Below, in pieces: positions 1,262 through 63,261 of a DNA stretch of 64,000 bases (its first letter is position 1; each line of letters starts with the position of its first letter). The notes beneath the pieces are model-generated. The model was given only the letters and a program-made list of their open reading frames with translations, did not search any database and was not told where the DNA came from. Origin of the DNA: an uncultured Gammaproteobacteria bacterium (GTDB lineage Bacteria > Patescibacteriota > Patescibacteriia > Magasanikbacterales > GWA2-37-8); contig CAZUWJ010000001.1 in the NCBI GenBank assembly GCA_964624315.1, positions 21,160-85,159 on the forward strand, in the 5' to 3' direction. Made by a program: the position numbers and the translations under genes.

Positions 1262-1382
1262 ATATTTTTAAGATTTTAAGGAGTTTTTAGCAATGTCCCA
1301 AGGATAATTATTATTGCCTAAAATAAGCAATTTATAGTGTGGGACAGGATATATGTTACGAATTGTCTTTTTAAAGTTAATA

Positions 1383-1505: not shown

Positions 1506-2369
1506 TTACTGCGGGAGAAAGCCAGATGCCGAACCACAGCCGTCGCGGACACCGCCGACATCGCTCGTGCCGAGCCCGACCCCGCCGTCGCCGAAGAAGA
1601 AGTAGAATGCCTCGGAAAAACGGCCACCGGCCTCTGGAGCGAATTCATCACCTGGGCAGTCAATCCAAAGGTCATCGTAATTCATCAGACGTTCGGGGTG
1701 AGTCAAAATCATGATTCCGACAGCGAAACTTCCTAGACCAAACTCACTGGCATTCATAATTTCGCGTGCCCGACGGACGGATTTACCACGATGGTTCAAT
1801 CCAAACTGAGCCGGAACAACGAGAATGTCGTGATCTTTCTGATCATCGCCGAGCTTCTGGAATGAATTGACTGACTTCTGCGACTGACGCAGGTACTGCG
1901 CGCTGAGCTGACCTTCACGGTAGTTGTATAAATTGCCGTCTCTGGTCTGTTTGATCAAGTTGAGTACCTTTTGCACGGCTTCGCCGTAGGTCGGGGCGAT
2001 CTTCTCCCATCTTGGAATGGCGAACCATCCCTCGGCATTTGACGGGATATCTCCGTTGGCAAGAATTTCATCCACTGTGCCAAGTTCCGGGAACAACTGA
2101 TGCAGAGTAGCGACCTGCTCGGCGATATCCTTACCCTTGGGTTTGTAACCCGAAAGGTACTTATAATTGGACTCGACTTCCTCGTGGGCGAACTGGTTGT
2201 TCACGGAGAGTTCACGAATGGCGGAGATGATTATCGCCTGAAACTCGTCACCTTTCTCGATGAGCTTCTGGAGTCCGTCTTTATCGAGACCGACTTCGGT
2301 TAAGGCCTTATCCGCGGAATCTTCAATGAACCTTCTGTACTGTTTCTTCTGTCCTTTGGTGATCGCCAT
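1506..2369 (-). CDS. DGR target (variable) protein; C-terminal 43 codons are encoded by the VR
   Basis: 287 aa, about 50% GC, with an AGGAGG SD upstream. The 3' end is the VR. VR-encoded tail YFFFGDGGVGLGTSDVGGVRDGCGSASGFLPQ corresponds to TR-encoded YFNFNDGKVKLDTNDVDNVNDNYGSASGFIPK (AAC/AAG codons). Confidence 0.75.
   Translation of the reverse strand: MAITKGQKKQYRRFIEDSADKALTEVGLDKDGLQKLIEKGDEFQAIIISAIRELSVNNQFAHEEVESNYKYLSGYKPKGKDIAEQVATLHQLFPELGTVDEILANGDIPSNAEGWFAIPRWEKIAPTYGEAVQKVLNLIKQTRDGNLYNYREGQLSAQYLRQSQKSVNSFQKLGDDQKDHDILVVPAQFGLNHRGKSVRRAREIMNASEFGLGSFAVGIMILTHPERLMNYDDLWIDCPGDEFAPEAGGRFSEAFYFFFGDGGVGLGTSDVGGVRDGCGSASGFLPQ
1509..1637 (-). repeat. DGR variable repeat (VR)
   Basis: 129 bp aligned base by base to TR 2873..3001. 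There are 105 identities and 24 mismatches, and every mismatch is an A in the TR replaced by G, T or C in the VR. Confidence 0.85.
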
Positions 2370-2872
2370 AGCGTCATCCTCCTTCTAAAATTACTGGAAC
2401 CGCTCCAGTAGGCGTTGCCTCTAATGAGGCGAGTGTACTAAATATATTAATATATATCCAATATGCTCGCCTCATTTTATGCAGTAAAATTAATGTTTTT
2501 AAAGAACAATTTAATAGTCTAGTATATCATAAATTGGGAGTTTTGTCAATGTTTGATTTTTAGCGGATGTAAATATGATAATTACTGTTAATTTTATCTT
2601 TTGTATGATAACATAAATTTGAGCATAGGCTAATGTTTGGCAGTTTACGAATTGCCAACGCCGAACTCTCTCTTTAACTAAAACAGCCAGAGTCGTGGCA
2701 ATTAAGGTTGTCATGAGCGTGTTGGTTTAAGGAGATACTGCTTGCTTTTACCTAGTACGGATTTCCATTTGGAATACCATCAAATAAAATACAGGGTTGA
2801 AAATATATAATTCCACAGCCAGTGGAAAGTAAAATTTAAGACCTAGTGATAATAGATGGGTAGAAGTGATAA

Positions 2873-3001
2873 CCAGAAGCCGATGGCCGTTTTTCCAAGG
2901 CATTCTACTTCAACTTCAACGACGGCAAGGTCAAGCTCGACACGAACGATGTCGACAATGTCAACGACAACTATGGTTCAGCATCTGGCTTTATCCCGAA
3001 G
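2873..3001 (+). repeat. DGR template repeat (TR)
   Basis: Invariant partner of the VR. It is A-rich at variable sites (AAC/AAG codons in the VR reading frame) and has no long ORF. The six-frame ORFs 2856..3125 and 1478..1675 are artefacts of this repeat. Confidence 0.85.
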
Positions 3002-3014
3002 TCTCTCCTTATTA

Positions 3015-3043
3015 AAAAGAGTATCCACTAAACGGATACTCTT
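3015..3043. terminator. hairpin between convergent TR and avd
   Basis: AAAGAGTATCCactaaacGGATACTCTTT inverted repeat lying between the TR end and the avd stop codon. Confidence 0.35.
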
Positions 3044-3390
3044 TAAAATTTTACTGATTTTATCCAACCGCCCAACATTCGTCCGATTTCATCAACTATA
3101 CTTTCTAAAGCGACGTACTTTTTAATATCAATTGTTTTAGTGTCTTTCATTAGGCGTATAAAAACACGTAACATGTTTAATTTTATACTACACTTCTCAA
3201 GTGTGGGTAGTTTGTTAGCTTTTTGTTCACCACTGGCTTTAATAATGCTTTCAATTATATCTAAGATTAATTTATCTCCGCGTTCAAAAATTGTATATCT
3301 ATCTTGTTTGGACACAATCTTGCGATATCCATGGAAAAGTTTATATAAATCGTAAGATTTTTTAAAAATTGGAATATCGAAGTCGTTCAT
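3043..3390 (-). CDS. avd: DGR accessory variability determinant (Avd; four-helix-bundle family)
   Basis: 115 aa. C-terminus DEIGRMLGGWIKSVKF matches the Bordetella bAvd C-terminal motif (aEvGRiLGsWiarv). Its size and position between TR and RT fit Avd. It lies on the strand opposite to TR and RT. Confidence 0.6.
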   Translation of the reverse strand: MNDFDIPIFKKSYDLYKLFHGYRKIVSKQDRYTIFERGDKLILDIIESIIKASGEQKANKLPTLEKCSIKLNMLRVFIRLMKDTKTIDIKKYVALESIVDEIGRMLGGWIKSVKF

Positions 3391-3413
3391 AAAATGTTTT
3401 AACTAATTTATTT

Positions 3414-4463
3414 ATGAGAATTTACCGTAATTTATTTGATAAAATTATTTCTCTAGAAAATTTAATGTTGTCTTGGGAAAAATTTCGTCGTGGAAAAACC
3501 GGAAAACCTGATGTACAAAAATTTGAGTTTAATTTAGAAGAAAATATTTTTAATCTTCATCGGGAATTGAAAAATAAGACATATATACATGGCAAATACA
3601 CTGGATTTTATATTACTGACCCAAAGACTCGACATATACATAAGGCAACTGTGAAAGACAGGGTATTACACCACGCTATTTTTAGAATTTTAAACCCTGT
3701 TTTTGAAGAGACTTTTATCTCTAACTCATTTTCTTGTAGAGTAAATAAAGGAAGTCATTTGGGAGTTGAGAAACTTGCTAGTATGATTAGGTCTGAAAGT
3801 AAAAATTATACTTCACCATGTTTTGTTTTAAAGTGCGATGTTAAAAAGTTTTTTGATTCAGTTGATCATCATATACTTTTGAAAATTATTAAAAGAAGAA
3901 CATGTAATAATAGCACGAGTTGGCTAGTGGGTCAAGTGATAAAAAGTTATTCAGCCAAGCAAACCGACCTTTTTAACCGACAGGGAATACCAATAGGTAA
4001 TTTAACTTCTCAATTGTTTGCCAATATTTATTTAAACGAGCTTGATCAGTATATTAAAAACAAATTAAAGGTAAAATATTATGCCAGATATACAGATGAT
4101 TTTGTTATAGTTTCCAAGAATAAAAAATATTTAAGAGGGCTGTTAGACCCTCTTAAAGAAATGCTATTTGAAAAATTAAAATTAGAACTTCATCCGCAAA
4201 AAGTTTCCATTGAAAATATTAATAGCGGGATAGATTTTTTAGGTTATGTTATTTTTCCACACCATACTCTGATTCGTCAAAAAACTAAACGTCGAATGTT
4301 TAAAAAACTAAAAAGAGCAGTTAAACAATACAAACAGAAAGAAATTAGTCAGGAAACTTTAGAACAAAGTTTACAATCCTACTTAGGAGTTTTATCTCAC
4401 GCCAACGCTTACAAATTAAGTCAAGATTTAAAAAATATGTATTGGTTTTGGTTGAATGAGTAA
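3414..4463 (+). CDS. DGR reverse transcriptase
   Basis: 349 aa. YARYTDDFVIV (YxDD) catalytic motif, QGIPIGNLTSQLFANIYLNELD motif ([I/L]GxxxSQ, diagnostic of DGR RTs versus group II QGxxxSP) and N-terminal LENLMLSWEKFRRGK. Confidence 0.85.
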   Translation: MRIYRNLFDKIISLENLMLSWEKFRRGKTGKPDVQKFEFNLEENIFNLHRELKNKTYIHGKYTGFYITDPKTRHIHKATVKDRVLHHAIFRILNPVFEETFISNSFSCRVNKGSHLGVEKLASMIRSESKNYTSPCFVLKCDVKKFFDSVDHHILLKIIKRRTCNNSTSWLVGQVIKSYSAKQTDLFNRQGIPIGNLTSQLFANIYLNELDQYIKNKLKVKYYARYTDDFVIVSKNKKYLRGLLDPLKEMLFEKLKLELHPQKVSIENINSGIDFLGYVIFPHHTLIRQKTKRRMFKKLKRAVKQYKQKEISQETLEQSLQSYLGVLSHANAYKLSQDLKNMYWFWLNE

Positions 4464-4683: not shown

Positions 4684-5676
4684 TTAAATTTGTGAACTAA
4701 ACGGCAAAGTCTGGATAAAGTTTGTCATAAAATTCCAGTCTGGTTTACCGTTTTTAGTTGGGAGTTTTATTTTAATATCACCAGTTCTTTTGCTGGCAAC
4801 TCTACCATAATTAAAACGATATTTTTCTTTATTTATTATTGTTGCAATAAAAAGTAATATTGCCGTATTTACATTATCAAATTTTGCAATTAATGCTTTC
4901 GTTCGTGTTCCTAAATAATAATTTTGTGGTTGAGTGGTAGCAAAGAAATTACCCCTATCTGCAAGAGTTAAAGAATTTTCATGATTATATAATTTATAGT
5001 TGGGTAATTCACTTGTGTGGGCGACAACTCCGTTGTTGATAGCACTGTGTCCAATAACTGGATTTTTACCAATTAAACTCGAATAATATAACAAATCTTT
5101 TCCAGTTTCTATGTTAAATAAATCACTTAATTTGTAAATTTTCCATTTATTTATATTTAATTGTGGTGTTGCTAAGTTTTTATTTGGTTTTTTAGCATAT
5201 TGATAATTGTGCGTGTGTTCGCCAATAAACTTTTCCATAAAATTCCAGTCTGGTTTACCATTTTTAATTGGGAGTTTTATAGAACATGATTTTAAACGTT
5301 CTTGACTGGCTTTTCGTCCGTAATTATAGCGGTATTGTTCTCGATTTATAATTGTCAATAAAAACATCGCAATATTTTTTGTCATTTCAAACTTTGGAAT
5401 TAGCTTTTCTACATGGTCGCTGGCAGAAAAATCAGTATCTTGATAAGAACAATAGCCAAGCACAGCACTGTCAATGATCAAAACACCGCCTTTTTCAGTG
5501 GAGAAATTATAAAAACCTTCAACGCCGTTATTTGTGGCTTGAGTGGTTACAAATGGATTTTTTCCGATTCCGTATTCTTGTAATTCTAGAATAGGTGTTG
5601 TTTTACTTCCTTTAATTTTAAACAAATCGGAAAGATTAAAACTTTGCCAGTTTGTTGTATTAATTTTATTTATCAT
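4684..5676 (-). CDS. Type IIB (BcgI-like) restriction-modification specificity subunit with two target-recognition domains
   Basis: 330 aa. Two internal repeats share the motif NYGR.AS.R...IKLP.KNGKPDWNFM (a duplicated TRD). It overlaps the upstream R-M gene by 11 bp. Confidence 0.6.
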   Translation of the reverse strand: MINKINTTNWQSFNLSDLFKIKGSKTTPILELQEYGIGKNPFVTTQATNNGVEGFYNFSTEKGGVLIIDSAVLGYCSYQDTDFSASDHVEKLIPKFEMTKNIAMFLLTIINREQYRYNYGRKASQERLKSCSIKLPIKNGKPDWNFMEKFIGEHTHNYQYAKKPNKNLATPQLNINKWKIYKLSDLFNIETGKDLLYYSSLIGKNPVIGHSAINNGVVAHTSELPNYKLYNHENSLTLADRGNFFATTQPQNYYLGTRTKALIAKFDNVNTAILLFIATIINKEKYRFNYGRVASKRTGDIKIKLPTKNGKPDWNFMTNFIQTLPFSSQI

Positions 5677-7540
5677 CTTTTATTCCTAATTTGAATAATG
5701 TGAATTGTTTTATTGTATTAGCAAAATCATCAACAGATAAATCAGAATAATTAGTTTCCATATATGCTTCAGCGCACCATTCATTATCAGCGGTAATTTT
5801 TTTAAGGATAGACAAACCAGCAATATCTTTGTGGTTTCGATAATTTGTAATCCAATTATATTTTATACCATCTTTATAATTGTTTTCTGTAGCACCTTCA
5901 AACTTACCAAATAAGTCAATCCTACCTTTGTTTTTTCGTTTAACAAAACCATCGTCTTTGTAATAGCCAAGATAAACTTCTTTATCGGATGGATGTGGAC
6001 GTTTGGCGGTGAAAACCATTATACAAGACACCACCCCGACTTTAGAATTAAAGAATAATTCATCAGGCATTGAAAAAACCGCTTCCAATGTATGGTATTT
6101 TAAAATTTTTTTCTTGTAGTCGTATACTTTACCACTAGTGGCTAATGCTTCTTGCATTGGGACAATTGCTGCGCATAAACCGCCTTGTGATAAACAATCG
6201 AGATTGTTTAAAATAAATTCATATTCATCAATATCTGTCTTTTTATCATTTTTATATGGGGGGTTTAGTAATCCAACATTTGGCTTTTTTTCTTTAACGG
6301 ATTTAATAATATCTTTATCAAAACAACTACCGTGATTAATGTTGGTTTTACCATCTTGGTGAATGAACATGTTTGAGCAAGCGAGAGGAAATATTTTATC
6401 AGACTGTTCTGTGCCAATCAGTTGTTTTGATTTAATTGATTTTATTTTTTCTTCATCACCTTGGGCATTTTTAATCATAATATTCATTGCAGAAACTAAG
6501 AAGCCACCAGTTCCTGTACAATTATCATACACAACACTATCTTTGTTTACTTGAACTAATTCTGCCATGAATTCGGTTATGTGTGGAGGAGTTAGAACAA
6601 TACCTAAGCCTTTGTCGGAATTGGCATAACGTAAAAATTCAATATAAAGCTGTCCTAGAGCATCAAAATATTCATGGGTTTTAATAAAATCTTGAATATT
6701 TTCTTTTATATCAGTGATAATATCTCGTAAATCAGTATTATTTTTATTAGTTAAAGCTGTATTGCCAACAATTAATTTGAAGCGGTTTTCCAAAATTTTT
6801 AATTTAGTCTCACCAATTTTACCAGTTTCAAACATGTTATGGGTTGTTAAAATCAGAAAATCGGCAAGTTGCTTGGCATCAGAGTAGTTAATATAAGTTG
6901 TTGCAAAGCTATTGTTTTCAAGAGCGATTAAAATACAAGCAATCAGTAAGGCTCTTTCGTCTTCAGCAATTTTTAGTTGATGAAGTTTTTTGTTAAGTTT
7001 TTGTGAGAAAGCAAGTAATGATTGATAATCTTGACGGAACTTCTCTGGACTTTTGATATATCCATTTAAATAATCATTGAGCGGTAAAAGTTTGTCATCA
7101 AAAATTGGTGTGGCAATTTGTTCACCTTTAAGTTGTAAAAAATGAGAAATTTTTAATTCATTTGGTCTTTCACCGCTTATAGCAATAGCAAGAACATCAA
7201 AACTTTTAGATAGAAATGAACTATAAAGTTTGATACCGTCTATTGCATAGTCAGCATATTTATCAGATGTTTTGCTTTTGTGTTTGGAGGTGTTTCCTTT
7301 GCACTCTACGGCAATAATAAAATTAGGGTTGTTGCGATTTTGAATAATAAAATCTGGACGACCTTTACCAGAGCCGTCTTTTTTAGATGCGTTAGATAAC
7401 ATTTTGTTGATTTTGTCATTTCTGGAAGTTTGACGTTCATAAATCCAGTCATGTTTATTTGTATCAAGAGCCACCGCGTCAGCATACTTTTTTACAAAAT
7501 CTTCAAAAATTGTTTCTGTATTTGTTTCGTTTACTGTCAT
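5666..7540 (-). CDS. Type IIB (BcgI A-like) bifunctional restriction endonuclease / N6-adenine DNA methyltransferase
   Basis: 624 aa. N-terminal PD-(D/E)xK (GRPDFII ... IAVECK), then MTase motif I VYDNCTGTGGFL and motif IV NPPY (gamma-class order). Confidence 0.7.
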   Translation of the reverse strand: MTVNETNTETIFEDFVKKYADAVALDTNKHDWIYERQTSRNDKINKMLSNASKKDGSGKGRPDFIIQNRNNPNFIIAVECKGNTSKHKSKTSDKYADYAIDGIKLYSSFLSKSFDVLAIAISGERPNELKISHFLQLKGEQIATPIFDDKLLPLNDYLNGYIKSPEKFRQDYQSLLAFSQKLNKKLHQLKIAEDERALLIACILIALENNSFATTYINYSDAKQLADFLILTTHNMFETGKIGETKLKILENRFKLIVGNTALTNKNNTDLRDIITDIKENIQDFIKTHEYFDALGQLYIEFLRYANSDKGLGIVLTPPHITEFMAELVQVNKDSVVYDNCTGTGGFLVSAMNIMIKNAQGDEEKIKSIKSKQLIGTEQSDKIFPLACSNMFIHQDGKTNINHGSCFDKDIIKSVKEKKPNVGLLNPPYKNDKKTDIDEYEFILNNLDCLSQGGLCAAIVPMQEALATSGKVYDYKKKILKYHTLEAVFSMPDELFFNSKVGVVSCIMVFTAKRPHPSDKEVYLGYYKDDGFVKRKNKGRIDLFGKFEGATENNYKDGIKYNWITNYRNHKDIAGLSILKKITADNEWCAEAYMETNYSDLSVDDFANTIKQFTLFKLGIKDDK

Positions 7541-20196: not shown

Positions 20197-20248
20197 GTCA
20201 TCCTGAGTGAAACGAAGGATCTAGATTCTTCGATACCTCAGAATGACA
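20197..20248. repeat. MITE-like palindromic repeat, short 52-bp form
   Basis: TGTCATCCTGAGTGAAACGAAGGATCT / AGATTCTTCGATACCTCAGAATGACA near-perfect palindrome between convergent genes. Confidence 0.7.
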
Positions 20249-23602: not shown

Positions 23603-24265
23603 TTAATTTTTTAAAATTTGGTCAATATCAGACTCTACTTCTTCAATAGTTTTTTGACCATCAACTTTTTTTAATACACCCAAATTATCATAAAAATCTA
23701 AAATAGGTTTCAAAGGGACATTGCCTTGTTTATCTATCCTCTCCTTAATGACTTCTTCACTGTCATCTGCTCTCACTTCTAAGTCTCCACCACATTTTAG
23801 ACATTTATCTATGTTGTAATATTTCGGAAGCCAAGGAATTATTTCTCCACAACTTTTACAAACTCTTCTTTTGGTTAATCTATTAAAACTTTCTTCATCA
23901 GACAAAGACACTTCAATCGCTTTTACCTCGTCAGCTAAGTTTTTGCTAACAAAAAAATCTTGATATTTTTCAGCTTGAGCAACATTTCGTATAGCTCCGT
24001 CTAATAGAACTCCTTGACCAGCATCCAAATATTTTTCAATTTCTGCAAAAGCCAGCTTGTATATCAAATCATCAGACACGAGTTTGCCGGTTTTCATCTC
24101 TTCTAGCTTCTTTTTATCTTCTGAGTCAGCGTTCGGATCACTCGCTAATGCACGCAAAAGATCACCAGTTGAAATATGGCCATATTTATGTTTTTCAACT
24201 AATTTTTTAGCCTGAGTGCCCTTTCCGCTTCCTGGCGGGCCAATTAAAATGATTATTTTTTGCAT
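23603..24265 (-). CDS. adk: adenylate kinase with zinc-binding lid
   Basis: P-loop IILIGPPGSGKGTQA and CKSCG ... CLKCGG lid cysteines. Confidence 0.9.
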   Translation of the reverse strand: MQKIIILIGPPGSGKGTQAKKLVEKHKYGHISTGDLLRALASDPNADSEDKKKLEEMKTGKLVSDDLIYKLAFAEIEKYLDAGQGVLLDGAIRNVAQAEKYQDFFVSKNLADEVKAIEVSLSDEESFNRLTKRRVCKSCGEIIPWLPKYYNIDKCLKCGGDLEVRADDSEEVIKERIDKQGNVPLKPILDFYDNLGVLKKVDGQKTIEEVESDIDQILKN

Positions 24266-24322
24266 AAATTTGATTTTTTCCGCTTAAATTAGGCAAAATT
24301 AGTATAACATAAAGCTAGGGGC

Positions 24323-24351
24323 TTGACAAGAAGGTTAAAATGTGGTATAAT
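24323..24351 (+). promoter_or_regulatory. consensus sigma70 promoter of lipoprotein cassette 1
   Basis: TTGACA, 17-bp spacer, TATAAT. Confidence 0.55.
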
Positions 24352-24616
24352 AATCTGTTAAATAAATACTGTTAGAGAGAGCGGTATTTTACACAAAACT
24401 CTTGTTTTATGTAAAATTCCCCTCTTTATCCAAGAGGGGTTTGTTCTTTAAAATTAAGGGTTATTTAAAAAGATTTGTTGTTTTCTTCCTAGCTATTGTT
24501 CTAAGCATTTATTTACTAAATACTTATTGGTAAATGGATGTTTAGAACAATAACACTGACAGTGCTTAGTGCCTAGCTTAGGGCCTTATAAAGTAAGTAG
24601 GAACAATGAGAAGACC

Positions 24617-25186
24617 ATGAAAAATTTTAAAACCATAGCAGGAGACCTGGCCTTCCTAATGGCCATCGCGATTTTCACCGCCACCTTCATGGGGTGTGGC
24701 GATGGTATTAGCGAAATCATGACCCAAGAAGACCTAATGGAAGGTATTGTGCCTTCTTTTGGCGATGGTGTCATGACCTCCCTCCCAGAGGGTTATTATG
24801 GACAGGTGTTCGCCTGTTACGACACCCCACACACTGATCGGATTCAAGATCCCTCCAATGTCCTTTTCGAGAATAAAAACTTGAAAGGATACTACGACAA
24901 GTGGTCTGGAAAGGTTTACCTCCAGAAAAAAGACGGGGAACAAAACAAAATCGTAATACAGTGTAGAGGGGAAGAAGTGCAAGAAGTGCACTATGTTGCC
25001 GAAGCATGGGAGGGACGATCCTCCGGAAGTATGAAATGCTACTACATCGTCGACGGCTGTCGTAACACGGAAAACATCTGTTTCCGCTACGAACAAGACG
25101 GAAGCAGCTCCACCACTTTCTCTCCAACAACAGCCCGAAGGGCTGAGTTGGATAGCCTTTGTATGGGCTTCCAAAATTTCAAATAA
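24617..25186 (+). CDS. GC-rich secreted cysteine-rich lipoprotein (hypothetical), paralog A
   Basis: Start MKNFKTIAGDLAFLMAIAIFTATFMGCG (signal peptide plus lipobox). About 50% GC, 10 Cys. Antisense six-frame ORFs 24734..25174 and 24771..25130 are artefacts. Confidence 0.5.
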   Translation: MKNFKTIAGDLAFLMAIAIFTATFMGCGDGISEIMTQEDLMEGIVPSFGDGVMTSLPEGYYGQVFACYDTPHTDRIQDPSNVLFENKNLKGYYDKWSGKVYLQKKDGEQNKIVIQCRGEEVQEVHYVAEAWEGRSSGSMKCYYIVDGCRNTENICFRYEQDGSSSTTFSPTTARRAELDSLCMGFQNFK

Positions 25187-25205
25187 CCCTTTTTTCTCTT
25201 ACTAC

Positions 25206-25242
25206 CCCTCGGCACAATTCGTGCTTGGGGGTGTTTTTTTTA
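25206..25242 (+). terminator. rho-independent terminator of cassette 1
   Basis: CCCCTCGGCACAATTCGTGCTTGGGGG plus a T-run. Near-identical to the terminator at 25899..25931. Confidence 0.6.
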
Positions 25243-25259
25243 TTATCCTTCTATCCCCC

Positions 25260-25289
25260 TTGACAAAACCCTGAAAATATGATATAATA
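25260..25289 (+). promoter_or_regulatory. consensus sigma70 promoter of lipoprotein cassette 2
   Basis: TTGACA, 18-bp spacer, TATAAT. Confidence 0.55.
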
Positions 25290-25453
25290 GCTTGTTGTAA
25301 AAACTGTTCTTTAAAATTAAGGGTTATTTAAAAAATACAATCATTCCAAGAAGATTAAAGCTAATACATTGGCTTTGGTTTTCTTGGAATGATACGAAAA
25401 TTGGAACGAACCTATTGACGCTCACCGTGGAACGGTGGGCAGGAGAATGAACA

Positions 25454-25891
25454 ATGCAACTCATGGCCAAAGCTACGATGTTTGCCATTCTTATTTCTAT
25501 TTTCGCAATCGCCTTTGGGGGTTGCGGACATGAAGAAACATGGGATCAAGATGCGACCCTGCCCATCCAATCCCTCTTAGAAGAAGAAGGGGGCTGGATA
25601 GGTATGGGTAGTAATGAGCTTGACCAAACGATTTATTATAAAGATGCATACTACCACTTTGAGAAGGGAGACCAGCATCTCAAGGTGAAGTGTTATCCTC
25701 TAAAATATAAGGGTAAGCTCAACCACCTCTTTAATTACCTCGTATACACGCCCAGAGGGGAAGACGAACGCGAGGAGTTTATTTTTTGTGAGGGCCTACT
25801 GCCATGTAGGTGGCAGCAACATGACTTTAACGTCCGGTTTTATCTAAAACCAGGCACAAGGGCCATCCTGGAAAATATCTGTTCAATGTAA
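25454..25891 (+). CDS. GC-rich secreted cysteine-rich lipoprotein (hypothetical), paralog B
   Basis: MQLMAKATMFAILISIFAIAFGGCG signal peptide plus lipobox. AGGAGA SD. Shares the ENIC motif and Cys spacing with paralog A. Confidence 0.5.
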   Translation: MQLMAKATMFAILISIFAIAFGGCGHEETWDQDATLPIQSLLEEEGGWIGMGSNELDQTIYYKDAYYHFEKGDQHLKVKCYPLKYKGKLNHLFNYLVYTPRGEDEREEFIFCEGLLPCRWQQHDFNVRFYLKPGTRAILENICSM

Positions 25892-25898
25892 TAACCCT

Positions 25899-25931
25899 TT
25901 TTCTTACCGCCCCCGGCACAGTTGTGCTGGG
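25899..25931 (+). terminator. rho-independent terminator of cassette 2
   Basis: CCCCCGGCACAGTTGTGCTGGGGG plus a T-run. Confidence 0.6.
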
Positions 25932-25964
25932 GGTATTTTTTTATTAACTGCTAATTAAAACAAA

Positions 25965-26232
25965 CTGTCATCCTGAGGAACCGAAGGATCTAATACCACA
26001 GCTCTAGATCCTTCGATTCCTCAGGATGACAATGCCCTACCTAGAAAGATATTGTACCACAGCTCTAGATCCTTCGATTCCTCAGAATGACAATGCCCTA
26101 CCTAGAAAGATATTGTACCACAACTTTAGATTCTTCTCCGCCACCCGGCGGATCAGAATGACAACACTCCCTTTGTAGGTAGGCAAACCCGCTTTCGCGG
26201 GGATAACACTATATTTTTTGTTTAATATAAAA
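25965..26232. repeat. tandem array of MITE-like repeat units and half-units
   Basis: One full palindromic unit, then two tandem roughly 60-bp units ATGCCCTACCTAGAAAGATATTGTACCACAGCTCTAGATCCTTCGATTCCTCAG(G/A)ATGACA, then two degenerate units ending in AGAATGACA and CCCGCTTTCGCGGGGATAACA. Confidence 0.7.
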
Positions 26233-26372
26233 TAAAGAAACTATAGTTTTAACTACAGTTTAAACTATAGTTTCTTTTACTCTTAAAATTTAAAAACCTC
26301 TCCGTAAAGAAAGGTTTTTTATTTGATTATTAGATCCTTCGGTTCCTCAGGAGGACAATGCTACAAGAAAAT

Positions 26373-27671
26373 TTATATCCTATCGTATTCATGCATTGTT
26401 ACCTGTGCTTCAATCTGTTTCGCTATATCAATTGCAACAGCTACTACGATCAATATACTAGTACCACCGATAGATAAGCTCTGTACCCCAAGTATACCAC
26501 GCAACACAAGCGGTAAAATAGCAATACCAGCCAAGAATGATGCTCCGGTTAAGTTAATCCTAGTCATTGTTCTGTTAAGATAACTTTCTGTTTCTTTACC
26601 AGGACGAATACCAGGAATAAAACCACCTTGACGTTGTAAATTCTCAGCGATTTTCTGAGGATGAAATATAACAGCAGTATAAAAATATGTAAAACCAAAT
26701 ACCAAGACAAAATATAATACTGCGTAAAAAACTTGATTTTGAAATACTTTAACAACACCCATAGCCAGACTCGCCATCCAAGCACTCTGCGCATTTATAA
26801 AAAACTGAGCAATCATCGGTGGAAATAAAATCAAAGAAATAGCAAAGATAATTGGAATAACACCAGCAAGATTCACACGCAACGGTAAATGGGTATTTGA
26901 TCCACCATACATTTTATTACCTCTAATTTGTTTCGCATAACTAACTGGAATATTTCTCTGACCTTCGTTTATAAACACAACTCCAACGATAGTAAAAACA
27001 GTAATTCCTCCAAATAAGATTAGTGTATATAAATCAGATGGATTATAGTTAACTATTAAATTTCTAACAACAGTTGGCAAACCTGTAACGATACCAGCAA
27101 AGATCAAAAGCGAAATACCATTACCCACTTTCTTTTCAGTTATCATCTCACCGATCCACATCAAAAATATAGTACCAGCTGTAATTGTTAAAATCATAAT
27201 TAAAAATCTGAAAGCATCAACTCCCACCAAAAGAGGAACTTGAGATTGAGAATTCAAAAGCTTTATCATGCTATATGATTGTAAAAAAGCCAATGGTACA
27301 GTTAAAAAACGAGTATACATGTTTATTTTTTGCTGACCAGATTCACCTTCTTTTTGAATTTCTTCTAACTTTGGCACAATCATGGTTAACAACTGAAATA
27401 TAATAGATGCAGTAATATAAGGGGCAATACCAAGCATAACTACTGAAAAGTTCTGCATAGTTCCACCTGAAAAAACATTTAACATCCCAAGCATTTGATT
27501 GCCAGCTAACATTTTTTGTAAAGCTCCAGCATCTACACCTGGCACAGGAATGTGAGCTACTAATCTAAAAATAACCAACATCAAAACAACAAATAAGATA
27601 TTTTTTCTTAAATCTTTTATTTTCCAAATTTGTCTAACTTTATCTGACCACATATTTTTTAAATTAATCAA
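26373..27671 (-). CDS. secY: preprotein translocase SecY
   Basis: 432 aa, 10 TM segments, conserved GGTSILI and plug/TM2 motifs. Positioned after rplO as in the spc operon. Confidence 0.9.
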   Translation of the reverse strand: MINLKNMWSDKVRQIWKIKDLRKNILFVVLMLVIFRLVAHIPVPGVDAGALQKMLAGNQMLGMLNVFSGGTMQNFSVVMLGIAPYITASIIFQLLTMIVPKLEEIQKEGESGQQKINMYTRFLTVPLAFLQSYSMIKLLNSQSQVPLLVGVDAFRFLIMILTITAGTIFLMWIGEMITEKKVGNGISLLIFAGIVTGLPTVVRNLIVNYNPSDLYTLILFGGITVFTIVGVVFINEGQRNIPVSYAKQIRGNKMYGGSNTHLPLRVNLAGVIPIIFAISLILFPPMIAQFFINAQSAWMASLAMGVVKVFQNQVFYAVLYFVLVFGFTYFYTAVIFHPQKIAENLQRQGGFIPGIRPGKETESYLNRTMTRINLTGASFLAGIAILPLVLRGILGVQSLSIGGTSILIVVAVAIDIAKQIEAQVTMHEYDRI

Positions 27672-43082: not shown

Positions 43083-43583
43083 TTAGAGAGCTCGGTAAAC
43101 GATTTTTTCAGCGAACTCGCCATAGTCTATGCCAAGCTTAAGTACAATACGCTTGCAAAAAGCCTCCCAAACCTCATCATCCAAACCTTTTGGGCGGAGG
43201 TCGTCATATCCATCAGTCGGTTGAAATGCTTCTACCAAGGTAGCCTTGGCATACAGTTCATTTGCATCAAAACCATGGACCTCCACAAGATCGCGGAGTA
43301 TCTGTAGACTAGCCGTGGTAGAGTCTCCGTCTATATCACGGGGAATAGTCATCATGGAATCCATGACAATTACTTCAAGGTCGTTGAAATTCTTAATAAT
43401 AGATTCAATAACACCGTGATAGTCCCCCATAAAACCGATGTAACTATCCTTGTTATCGAACATATCACCCCAGCTTAACACATGGTCAGCCGGAATCTTG
43501 CCTTTGTCTTTTAACCTCTTTGCGATCTCGTTGGCCAAAAGCTCGGGAAATGGTCGTGAAGTATCCACTATCAAAATTTTCAT
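43083..43583 (-). CDS. hypothetical protein, GC-atypical orphan
   Basis: 166-aa ORF at roughly 46% GC versus about 30% in its flanks. Strong AGGAGCAGGAGAGAG SD. No recognisable motif. Confidence 0.35.
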   Translation of the reverse strand: MKILIVDTSRPFPELLANEIAKRLKDKGKIPADHVLSWGDMFDNKDSYIGFMGDYHGVIESIIKNFNDLEVIVMDSMMTIPRDIDGDSTTASLQILRDLVEVHGFDANELYAKATLVEAFQPTDGYDDLRPKGLDDEVWEAFCKRIVLKLGIDYGEFAEKIVYRAL

Positions 43584-50750: not shown

Positions 50751-51803
50751 CTAAAACATCCTTCTCACTTTTCTCAAAAATTTGTAAAACAAATACTTTT
50801 TATTATTTAAGATAATATCCACTGTTCCTGCGTCTTCTTTATATTCTCCTCCAAACCCAAGTTTGAATCTAGTTACACCAGCGTATTGATGGTCTTTGTT
50901 ATATTCAAATTCTTTTTTAGATCCTTCGCTCCGCTCAGGATGACAAGAGGGCTCAGGATGACAAGAAAAGTCAGGATGGCAGTTAACACAAGGCGCTATC
51001 CCAAAAAAATCATAATATTTATAACCCAACTCTTTACCAAACTTTATTGCTCCCCATTGTAGTAAATTCGGAGCCATTAACTTCCTATATTCATAATCAG
51101 ACGCCCCATAAAGATAGGTAAAAGTATCGCCAAAGCCAATAAATACGCCTGTCGCCACTACCCCGTCATCTTTATAGGCATTTAACTGGTAACTCAAATC
51201 AAATTCTAAAATTTCTTTATAATGTTTTTTATCATGCAGTCTAAAACCATCTCTTTGTCCAGTTTCTTGCATCAAATTAAAAAATTTATCAAAATCTTTT
51301 TCTTTTTTTACAACCACACCTTTCCTTTCAGACAATCCAATATTATACCTAGTCTTTGAATGCATGTTTTGCAAAATTTCTTCTTCATTTTTTGATATAT
51401 CTAATACTAAAGTAGACTTAGGATTAATATCTTTAGAAAATATAAATTTAAAATCCGAAGCCTGTATTTGCTCTTTTGGTTCAATACGTAAAAATATACA
51501 CTTTTTTTCTATAAAATAATCACTCAAGGTTCTCAAAACTTCTGTTTTCTCATCATCACCATCAATAAAAACAGGGCCTTTGGGACAAAAAGCATATTTT
51601 AATCCAAAAAACAGATCACTATACACAACCTGACATTCAGCTTTTATCTCCTCACCATCTAAAACCGCTAACCTTTCCACTTTTTTACCTTCATTTTCTA
51701 AAATTTTACCCCATCTTGAGCTTTGAGAAAAAGAAGAAAAACAGCTATTTTCTACTAGCCATTCATCCCAGCTGTCATTATTTTGTATTTTTTTAACTTC
51801 CAT
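50751..51803 (-). CDS. FemAB/FemX-family peptidoglycan branch aminoacyltransferase-like protein with in-frame repeat insertion
   Basis: Fem-like N-terminus (FSQSSRWGKI). The central segment CVNCHPDFSCHPEPSCHPERSEGS is encoded by a MITE end at 50919..50981. Confidence 0.5.
   Translation of the reverse strand: MEVKKIQNNDSWDEWLVENSCFSSFSQSSRWGKILENEGKKVERLAVLDGEEIKAECQVVYSDLFFGLKYAFCPKGPVFIDGDDEKTEVLRTLSDYFIEKKCIFLRIEPKEQIQASDFKFIFSKDINPKSTLVLDISKNEEEILQNMHSKTRYNIGLSERKGVVVKKEKDFDKFFNLMQETGQRDGFRLHDKKHYKEILEFDLSYQLNAYKDDGVVATGVFIGFGDTFTYLYGASDYEYRKLMAPNLLQWGAIKFGKELGYKYYDFFGIAPCVNCHPDFSCHPEPSCHPERSEGSKKEFEYNKDHQYAGVTRFKLGFGGEYKEDAGTVDIILNNKKYLFYKFLRKVRRMF
50919..50981. repeat. MITE-like repeat fragment (three tandem CTCAGGATGACA termini) embedded in coding sequence
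   Basis: AGATCCTTCGCTCCGCTCAGGATGACA AGAGGGCTCAGGATGACA AGAAAAGTCAGGATGGCA on the plus strand. Translated in-frame on the minus strand as the CHPx repeats. Confidence 0.7.
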
Positions 51804-60014: not shown

Positions 60015-60091
60015 TGTCATCCTGAGTGAAACGAAGGATCTTAATTCCGCTACTAGATTCTTCGCTCCACTCAGAATGACAACCTGATTAT
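60015..60091. repeat. MITE-like palindromic repeat, GAACGAAGGATC-core subfamily
   Basis: TGTCATCCTGAGTGAAACGAAGGATCT ... GATTCTTCGCTCCACTCAGAATGACA between the gamma and beta subunit genes. Confidence 0.7.
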
Positions 60092-63194: not shown

Positions 63195-63261
63195 TGTCAT
63201 CCTGAGTGGAACGAAGGATCTAACAACGTACTTAAAATTCTTCGCTCCACTCAGAATGACA
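63195..63261. repeat. MITE-like palindromic repeat, GAACGAAGGATC-core subfamily
   Basis: TGTCATCCTGAGTGGAACGAAGGATCT ... ATTCTTCGCTCCACTCAGAATGACA. Closest relative of 60015..60091. Confidence 0.7.

Follow-up and report, generated by a model that had tools for sequence, protein, structure and literature searches.

Outside ribosomal RNA (rRNA) operons, BoxA leaders are known from suhB of Enterobacteriaceae and from CRISPR arrays, where 11-12 nucleotides (nt) of BoxA lie shortly past the promoter and before a stretch prone to termination. The consensus of this NusB/S10 site is GYTCTTTAANA in gamma-proteobacteria (PMC5725501), the 11-mer GTTCTTTAAAA is the CRISPR boxA of Legionella pneumophila Lens, whose insertion into a leader increased precursor crRNA about ten-fold (PMC7862264), and the boxA of the Taylorella rRNA spacer (rrn) reads TGTTCTTTAACA (PMC2666751). 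Here we describe two tandem gene modules that lie between secY and adk in a stretch of 64,000 nt of a Patescibacteria genome (contig CAZUWJ010000001.1, Magasanikbacterales); this whole stretch is called the window, and coordinates are window positions. Each module consists of a promoter, a repeated box that begins with a BoxA-like motif, a leader hairpin of 25-26 base pairs (bp), an open reading frame (ORF) rich in G+C at third codon positions (GC3) and a strong terminator. The non-coding frame of these modules is conserved, in tandem, in three or more genomes and in two different genomic settings, where it carries unrelated GC3-rich cargo, and the cargo was replaced between closely related genomes.

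The modules share the position of the motif with the known non-rRNA BoxA leaders; unlike those, the motif here belongs to a Patescibacteria genome and stands ahead of translated genes whose products are secreted, its binding of Nus factors is a prediction, and it is fused to another 18 conserved nt and to a long hairpin and repeated with each module. An rRNA operon leader is resembled by module 1 in the hairpin directly before BoxA and by the modules in the BoxA-adjacent sequence that complements sequence after the payload, and RNase III is encoded in the genome, but the payload here is mRNA and the complement of the ends spans only 7-15 nt, with weak statistics. The vsa, vsp, vpma and vlp loci of Mycoplasma, which are also found in host-dependent organisms with small genomes, likewise hold clustered lipoprotein genes with a conserved 5' non-coding region and signal-peptide start and with mature parts that are unrelated or highly divergent. 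Unlike them, the modules come without an adjacent recombinase, inverted genes or a single expression site, each has its own promoter and terminator, and in one close relative (the L115 type, described below) the locus was identical in six samples. Morons and integron cassettes are, as here, autonomous one-gene units of deviant composition, found in tandem and with swappable content between fixed boundaries, but the modules are accompanied by no prophage, integrase or attC-like sites, and their promoter and terminator belong to a conserved frame.

The locus is bordered on the left by adk (23603..24265, minus strand; PF00406 ADK on the identical protein) and on the right by secY (26373..27671, minus strand), both taken from the ORF list and the latter also from a SecY search, in which the best matches among 185,579 species genomes were Magasanikbacteria metagenome-assembled genomes with 60-76% identity. 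A first-pass annotation of this DNA had described two opposite-strand modules wedged between the two genes, and both are present on the plus strand of the 2,107-nt spacer. The consensus promoters that it reported were confirmed as P1 (module 1, TTGACA-17-TGgTATAAT, 24323..24351, plus strand) and P2 (module 2, TTGACA-17-TGaTATAAT, 25260..25288, plus strand); both scored 12/12 with a TG extension and a spacer of 17, and they were the top two promoter sites within 6 kb. The promoter scan also gave adk a promoter of its own, TTGTCA-17-TATACT with TG (24301..24329, minus strand), whose arrangement and upstream sequence recur in relatives. It stands back-to-back with P1, the -35 hexamers overlapping within the palindromic CTTGACAAG, and the sequence around the two promoters is recognisably kept in several relatives.

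Module 1 continues with the leader L1 (24386..24439, plus strand; fold z = -4.2), which forms one hairpin at 24386-24417 and a G+C-rich one at 24419-24439 followed by UUUGUUCUUU. The second hairpin may be terminator-like, or boxB-like given its position directly before the BoxA-like motif, and in the predicted fold of this leader AGAGAGCG was paired with the BoxA region. It was also observed that 24352-24450 as a whole reads as a hairpin and a terminator-like hairpin with UUUGUUCUUU directly before or overlapping the BoxA-like motif, and it could give a short RNA of about 90 nt or serve as an attenuator. Copy 1 of the box follows at 24442..24471 (plus strand), with the BoxA-like TGTTCTTTAAAA at 24442-24453 and, at 24456-24465, AAGGGTTATT, the complement of the 3' motif; copy 2 lies at 25305..25334 (plus strand), with the BoxA-like part at 25305-25316 and AAGGGTTATT at 25319-25328, and starts about 10 nt past the expected transcription start. 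The box had been reported before as a 28-bp repeat; the repeat is real, its length is 30 nt, and the second coordinate was about 10 nt off.

Behind the box each module has a long leader hairpin, type I5 in module 1 (24494..24552, plus strand, 26 pairs) and type I6 in module 2 (25340..25393, plus strand, 25 pairs), both with arms of 26 nt. Compared with shuffled sequences both module leaders were strongly structured (z = -5.9 and -7.6), in agreement with the long structured 5' untranslated regions noted in the first pass. The cargo genes are ORF1 (24617..25186, plus strand, 189 aa, ATG start) and ORF2 (25454..25891, plus strand, 145 aa). The 13-nt 3' motif AATAACCCTTTTT was found at 25182..25194 (plus strand), where its TAA is the stop codon of ORF1, and by repeat comparison again at 25890..25902 (plus strand). 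The intrinsic terminators T1 (25203..25242, plus strand, -19.2 kcal/mol) and T2 (25909..25944, plus strand, -23.1 kcal/mol), each followed by a T-run, are strong, and the expression signals are duplicated as claimed, namely promoter, box, 3' motif and terminator. The right border of the variable region, 25966..26357 (no strand), is formed by copies of a miniature inverted-repeat transposable element (MITE; TGTCATCCTGAGG...GATC family), a palindrome with 21-bp arms and the secY terminator. An adjoining MITE array had been predicted and was found at 25966-26170, and the spot in which the locus lies is variable.

To follow the modules in other genomes, 19 nt of the box were used in a metagenome scan. 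It gave 41 matches, and the true relatives were L101, L107 and L115 only; the remaining matches were chance, including three gut contigs with 27 nt in common. L115 is of the same genome type as L107, L001 and L260-L265. The related Magasanikbacteria contigs bear one to three modules, and their scaffold is 90-97% identical. The backbone of the L115 type is 94% identical to the window (amino acid identity of Map 98.6%, Adk 95.5% and a SecY fragment 98%). Its spacer holds, in order, a MITE, a module with P1-leader-box, an I6 hairpin and an orthologue of ORF2, a further MITE, and a second module with P1-leader-box, an I5 hairpin and the 219-aa lipoprotein ORF3, which is unrelated to ORF1. The 53-nt 3' end of this different cargo gene is 100% identical to window 25890-25942 at the T2 end. 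In L101 three modules adjoin dnaG instead of adk; one carries a signal-anchored pentapeptide-repeat protein (PF00805), and the other two carry lipoproteins of 168 and 152 aa. Including ORF1 and ORF2, six mutually unrelated cargo families were found on the scaffold, and neither blastn (word size 7) nor tblastx revealed hidden homology among the cargos.

Relative to window module 1, identity in L115 and L101 was 0.93 and 0.93 for the promoter, 0.97 and 0.93 for the leader L1, 0.97 and 0.93 for the box and 0.95 and 0.90 for the hairpin, and it fell to 0.43 and 0.28 in the first 28 codons. Between modules, homology extends across the ribosome-binding site into the first one to four codons, weakens along the signal peptide and returns at the stop codon, at least three modules using the TAA in (A)ATAACCC as the stop. 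We also observed that L115 has ATC at 1279-1281 (minus strand) where the conserved frame has the ATG of ORF3; this ATC is identical in four independent assemblies reaching the site (also L260, L261, L262 and L264). Since ATC replaces ATG, gene callers start ORF3 downstream and lose the signal peptide. A further contig, L258 (Logan SRR8862237, 1,594 nt), carries the exact adk of the window and ends inside the module 1 leader. This break is consistent with assemblers failing at the repeated leader, and such loci are therefore probably under-represented in short-read assemblies. Exact-protein look-ups for the rRNA leader or strain variants of the window genome returned only this 1.6-kb contig and a 27-kb contig from the side of the retroelement described below.

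The spacer itself was compared more broadly. The genes secY and adk, which the first pass took to be normally adjacent, are separated by 5-4,710 nt across 58 relatives, and the gap is at least 380 nt in 40 of the 58 and usually occupied. In nine relatives a GC-enriched ORF on the opposite strand of the spacer is preceded by a strong promoter, and the number rises to eleven if two with a weaker -10 are included (L002-L004, L008, L013, L016, L033, L040, L046, L055 and L060), and in six of them the promoter lies at most 220 nt from adk. The three closest species, L002-L004, have a layout like that of the window, with adk under its own promoter and a strong opposite promoter, and their spacer contains a single GC-rich opposite-strand ORF followed by a long 3' hairpin and a terminator. 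These three ORFs are all different, with a GC content of 0.60-0.61 against 0.42-0.44 in the flanks and a GC3 of 0.67-0.85. Because the gap is variable in the 58 relatives and eleven of them have a promoter with a GC3-rich opposite ORF, the spacer is best read as a long-standing expression site and not as a scar of recent insertion. The same insertion at native GC, which the first pass had named as refuting its reading, was not what relatives presented: the site is occupied there, and the cargo is GC-enriched there too.

Two side observations concern this spacer. The hairpin after the cargo in L002 (7345-7420), L003 (6300-6360) and L004 (2880-2950, minus strand) begins with GCTTCTCG and is followed by the terminator; the long stem is in the 3' untranslated region in these species versus the 5' untranslated region in the window. 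In 25 of the 58 relatives a conserved gene on the strand of secY and adk, directly upstream of the latter, specifies a protein of some 95 aa (MGFFS..KYSQ...GDGKISL) (L006, L008, L013, L017, L029, L033, L036, L040-L042, L045, L047, L049, L051, L053-L056, L062, L065, L066, L071, L076, L077 and L081); this protein is absent from the window and from L002-L004.

ORF1 and ORF2 are real genes for secreted or lipid-anchored proteins, since each is longer than any ORF in 5000 shuffles, both follow the lipoprotein rule and ORF2 is under purifying selection. The rule, a regular-expression version of the PROSITE PS51257 type, asks for K/R at the N-terminus, a hydrophobic stretch and the lipobox [LIVMFWSTAG]2-[LIVMFYSTAGCQ]-[AGS]-C with its Cys at residues 15-35. 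It was passed by ORF1 at TFMGC (Cys27, in a lipoprotein-type signal peptide, with six further Cys) and by ORF2 at AFGGC (Cys24, with four conserved Cys), as the first-pass annotation had proposed, and also by ORF3 of L115 and by cargos B and C of L101. The orthologue of ORF2 (P0003/P0006) lacks the lipobox Cys and retains a signal or anchor sequence. Neither Lgt nor LspA was recognised among the window ORFs, which were read by eye and partly Pfam-scanned. Both genes are probably highly expressed.

The two proteins had been called paralogous. BLASTP matched the signal peptides at E = 0.004 and the remainder at E = 0.26, and only promoter, leader, 3' motif and terminator are homologous between the modules; the shared ENIC motif is a coincidence of four residues, the ORF2 orthologue having EEVC. 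Homologues of ORF1 were absent from 5.8 billion clustered proteins and from an exhaustive HMMER search of 1.84 billion representatives, and in the same sets ORF2 had a single orthologue family with 50-55% identity. ORF2 is under purifying selection, with a dN/dS against its orthologue of about 0.2 and the four Cys conserved. Its synonymous divergence (dS) between window and L115 is saturated (>1.3), while for the adjacent adk the two genomes give a dS of 0.28-0.43. It follows that the alleles of the cargo either predate the backbone divergence by far or evolve far faster. Small leader ORFs were also considered as leader peptides and were rejected, as they are not kept in frame between the window and L001.

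The box TGTTCTTTAAAATTAAGGGTTATTTAAAAA is exact over 30 nt in both copies, and no such match arose in 100 shuffles. It starts with the 12 nt TGTTCTTTAAAA, within which GTTCTTTAAAA agrees at every position with the BoxA consensus derived for gamma-proteobacteria; the motif is also written (T)GTTCTTTAA and, as RNA, UGUUCUUUAAAA or UGUUCUUUAAAAUU. The 11-mer occurs at 24443, 25306 and 2507 (minus strand), and all three sites are downstream of consensus promoters. Of the four matches to the BoxA consensus in the window, these three belong to leaders of genes rich in G+C and come shortly after the promoter. A BoxA-like sequence also occurs at about +10 of the equivalent promoter in L008 (GTTCTTTGATA) and L003 (GTTCCTTAACA), and the BoxA-like part is invariant in modules B and C of L101, with one change in its module A. 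S10 (NusE) and RNase III are encoded in the window. No rRNA was found in the window or in any fetched locus.

The second part of the box, TTAAGGGTTATT, is complementary to the 3' motif, with 10 perfect pairs, or 14/15 in module 1. The energy of this 5'-3' duplex beat shuffled sequences in window modules 1 and 2 and in module A of L115 (p = 0.01-0.02), and pairing of the two mRNA ends is a possibility only. In L002-L004, complements of 7-8 nt seen by eye were not supported by the duplex test against shuffles and were rejected. The two hairpin types differ in sequence and are alike in form. I5 is 100% paired across three genomes with two pairs changed on both sides, and I6 is 98% paired across four modules with one pair changed on both sides. 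Several invariant U.G pairs, which would be A.C mismatches on the opposite strand, suggest that it is the sense RNA that functions. RNase III accepts stems of 25-26 bp as substrates. Rfam returned only tRNAs at the gathering score in the window, and its matches in the locus at E<=5 were noise.

The composition of the cargo was found to differ strongly from that of the genome. GC content is 0.47 in ORF1, 0.445 in ORF2 and 0.34 in the genome, and GC3 is 0.53 and 0.49 in the two ORFs and 0.24 in secY, adk and map; in L003 and L004 the cargo GC3 reaches 0.83-0.85 at a host GC of 0.44. Codon usage of the cargo genes of all three genomes and of the retroelement target gene was compared with 17,293 background codons. 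The frequency of C at third positions was 0.25-0.37 in cargo and 0.10 in the background, that of Leu CTC+CTG 0.53 and 0.06, and that of Ile ATC 0.50 and 0.12. The foreign composition claimed in the first pass accordingly applies to the codon usage of both coding sequences (CDSs) and not to the scaffold, which is AT-rich and native-looking. The high GC3 may stem from a foreign pool common to the cargos, from selection, or from GC-biased conversion where recombination is frequent.

A third leader of the same design was found in a complete diversity-generating retroelement (DGR) at 1506-4463. It drives the DGR target gene (1506..2369, minus strand, 287 aa, GC 0.52, no Pfam match) and lies at 2497..2549 (minus strand), with TTGACA-17-TGaTATACT at 2549-2521, 12 nt, TGTTCTTTAAAA at 2508-2497 and a long hairpin; in full it reads promoter, 12 nt, TGTTCTTTAAAAA, long hairpin. 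It retains exactly 15 nt of the box, ATTGTTCTTTAAAAA, and nothing else, and the halves of the box are therefore functionally separable. The other parts of the DGR are the variable repeat (VR, 1508-1637), which matches the template repeat (TR, 2873-3002) at 81.5%, the bAvd gene (PF22296, 3043..3390, minus strand) and the reverse transcriptase (RT) gene (PF00078, 3414..4463, plus strand). The GC content of the RT and Avd genes is 0.29-0.30 and that of the target 0.52, so the bias follows the genes with this leader and not the whole mobile element. The TR matches only 1508-1637; ORF1 and ORF2 were rejected as DGR targets because it matches nothing in either. Side observations on composition and on this neighbourhood are a RidA/L-PSP gene at 588-974 (PF01042, GC 0.49) and a 166-aa orphan at 43083-43583 (GC 0.43, no Pfam match), both without a BoxA-type leader, and type I restriction-modification S and M genes at 4684-7540 (PF01420; N6_Mtase in L259), which adjoin the DGR.

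The modules combine leader and hairpin types in different ways. P1 with I5 occurs in window module 1, L115 module B and L101 module A, P2 with I6 in window module 2 and L101 modules B and C, and P1 with I6 in L115 module A; the combinations join at the box. Between the window and L001 a segment of 863 nt differs that is bounded by the exact 30-nt box repeats. The mixed types and this segment therefore indicate past recombination at or near the box. The L115-type locus was 100% identical wherever covered in six samples, three contigs spanning all 2,340 nt and three shorter ones covering part of it, which argues against rapid switching of the phase-variation type and favours rare replacement over species divergence. 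The MITE-like family was also observed elsewhere in the window. It consists of short palindromes with the ends GTCATYCTGA...TCAGRATGAC (13 half-sites against 0.09 expected) at 20197-20247, 22626, 25966-26162, 26328-26357, 50935-50962, 60016-60080 and 63196-63260, which sit in intergenic spacers, three tandem copies coming directly after module 2; L115 has copies both in front of its first module, on the adk side, and between its modules. At 26234-26277, flanked by the MITEs and by the terminator of secY, there is a nearly perfect palindrome whose arms measure 21 nt (AAAGAAACTATAGTTTTAACT / AGTTTAAACTATAGTTTCTTT), and L115 has it too.

The explanation that we prefer, and to which we give about an even chance, is a long-standing site that serves to express surface proteins, with turnover of these proteins from species to species, on a conserved, AT-rich and native-looking scaffold. 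In each module a consensus extended -10 sigma-70 promoter is followed by a BoxA-type leader start, the 25-26-bp hairpin, the ribosome-binding site with the start codon and the first signal-peptide codons, then the cargo, the 3' motif AATAACCC, which often supplies the stop codon, and a strong intrinsic terminator. The cargo is the variable part, unrelated GC3-rich ORFs, mostly for lipoproteins or signal-anchored proteins, that differ by module and genome. The BoxA part would recruit NusB/S10 and make transcription of these genes, with their aberrant codons and long leaders, resistant to premature termination of the Rho type, as in rRNA operons and CRISPR arrays. Genes with aberrant codons are likely translated slowly, which would expose the nascent RNA to Rho-type termination, and the Nus/BoxA complex would suppress it. 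The leader hairpin may act as an RNase III or stability element, and the 10-nt complement between box and 3' motif may pair both ends of the mRNA. Cargo would be exchanged by recombination in the conserved scaffold on an evolutionary timescale rather than that of phase variation, and the products would be surface-exposed and take part in host or phage interaction.

Several results weigh against this explanation or parts of it. The GC3 enrichment of the cargo is left unexplained by an expression site. Matches to GYTCTTTAANA number 4 in the window against 1.47 expected, and 7 of 100 shuffles reach 4, which is not significant; because one of the two window modules is a copy of the other, few of the BoxA-like occurrences are truly independent. 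Both boxes of L115 have an extra T (GTTCTTTTAAAA), and the equivalents in L002 and L004 are degenerate. The assignment of the box start to BoxA, which is drawn from sequence, is a well-founded lead. The 5'-3' pairing showed no compensatory change and fell short of significance in the DGR leader, in L101, in module B of L115 and in L002-L004, and the covariation of the hairpins, from 3-4 sequences, failed the shuffle control (111/500 for I5, 251/500 for I6). No recombination intermediate or variant was seen, and the L115-type locus did not differ among the six samples. For ORF1 and ORF2 there was no Pfam, NCBIfam, PHROG, PDB or credible PADLOC match, a single sub-threshold PADLOC match having E 0.004, and AlphaFold2 models reached a pLDDT of only 41.6 for ORF1, run as a single sequence, and 36.9 for ORF2, run with an alignment of two sequences.

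The recent acquisition and amplification proposed in the first pass, by which a foreign lipoprotein gene entered between secY and adk and was tandemly duplicated into now diverged paralogues, would explain why GC and GC3 are far above those of the genome, why promoter, box, 3' motif and terminator are duplicated, why MITEs lie next door and why both products have lipoboxes. It is largely refuted and in our view highly improbable, as the proteins are unrelated beyond the signal peptide, the parts that are duplicated look native and are rich in A+T, other species also have the promoter next to adk together with its surroundings, the spacer is occupied in most relatives, other cargos ride on the same scaffold elsewhere, the dS of ORF2 is saturated although the flanks are 91-94% identical, and both protein searches lacked donor homologues. 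The box-bounded 863-nt segment, the recombinant combinations P1+I5, P2+I6 and P1+I6, an inverted repeat of 10-17 nt that brackets each hairpin and CDS, and the array in another genomic context in L101 could instead be taken for a site-specific system, in which a recombinase would act on the box (together with the inverted 3' motif) to excise, insert or shuffle cassettes, in the manner of integron cassettes or of the vsa/vsp/vpma lipoprotein switches of Mycoplasma. We consider this improbable too: among the genes of the 64-kb window none was recognised as an integrase, invertase or transposase (ORFs read by eye, Pfam on the ones of no evident family), all modules are co-directional with a promoter each, the L115-type locus does not vary among samples, 30 nt of identity are enough for ordinary homologous recombination, and the DGR leader has only the BoxA part of the box. 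An integron test failed as well, since the candidate sites xAATAAC / GTTATTT are off the attC consensus (R'' RYYYAAC, R' GTTRRRY) and the interior between them is a terminator and a promoter without a palindrome, while integron cassettes are mostly promoterless.

It is also conceivable, though unlikely, that the modular architecture holds and the box is another cis element, such as an operator, a site for an RNA-binding protein, an anti-Shine-Dalgarno or translation-control element or a 5' end needed for mRNA stability, the match to BoxA being a coincidence in an AT-rich genome. About 1.5 chance 11-mer matches are expected per window, UUCUUU can pair with the ribosome-binding site GGAGAA in the predicted fold of module 2, the module 1 box is predicted to pair with upstream AGAGAG, the L115 motif has its 1-nt insertion, and conservation covers all 30 nt, beyond the first 12. 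Against coincidence, three leader occurrences are placed equally after a consensus promoter and ahead of GC-rich genes, the DGR leader keeps ATTGTTCTTTAAAAA alone, the motif is identical to a working Legionella boxA, and BoxA-like variants stand at the equivalent position in L003 and L008. Least probable of all, and by our estimate very remote, is that the GC-rich stretches are structured non-coding RNAs or that the units are remnants of prophage morons. GC-rich islands in AT-rich genomes are usually structured non-coding RNAs, and islands with strong promoters and terminators are what was found; promoter, gene and terminator of deviant GC are also the textbook description of a moron, so the unit structure fits. 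The ORFs, however, exceed the shuffled lengths and encode signal peptides with lipoboxes, ORF2 shows purifying selection with conserved Cys, the locus has no Rfam match, and the flanks are adk/map and secY/ribosomal proteins without phage genes or a prophage. INPHARED, IMG/VR and PHROGs gave no matches, tblastn against 50,697 phage records found nothing, the scaffold patterns were absent from IMG/VR, and the 15-nt pattern gave chance matches only.

Beyond the expression site at this locus, a wider proposal is that Magasanikbacteria, and perhaps other Patescibacteria, have an undescribed gene-cassette system, a native "expression vector" resembling an rRNA operon with precise start-to-stop exchange of the CDS, in which the same leader would also serve the target gene of a DGR and BoxA would serve codon-aberrant surface genes generally; we regard this as doubtful. 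Candidate-phylum bacteria live attached to other cells, and we know of almost nothing on the expression or variation of their surface. The locus offers a concrete and testable unit for this, with a frame conserved to 90-97% and a protein that is replaced between genomes 6% apart elsewhere. Should the BoxA reading fail, a well-documented hotspot of orphan secreted proteins would remain, which is of moderate interest. The frame is a natural set of promoter, leader and terminator and could serve as an expression tool when genetic work on these organisms becomes feasible. If the leader is a working BoxA, the reach of Nus antitermination would include accessory genes that code for proteins, in a distant lineage, and BoxA could explain how genes with codon usage deviating from that of the host are transcribed to full length.

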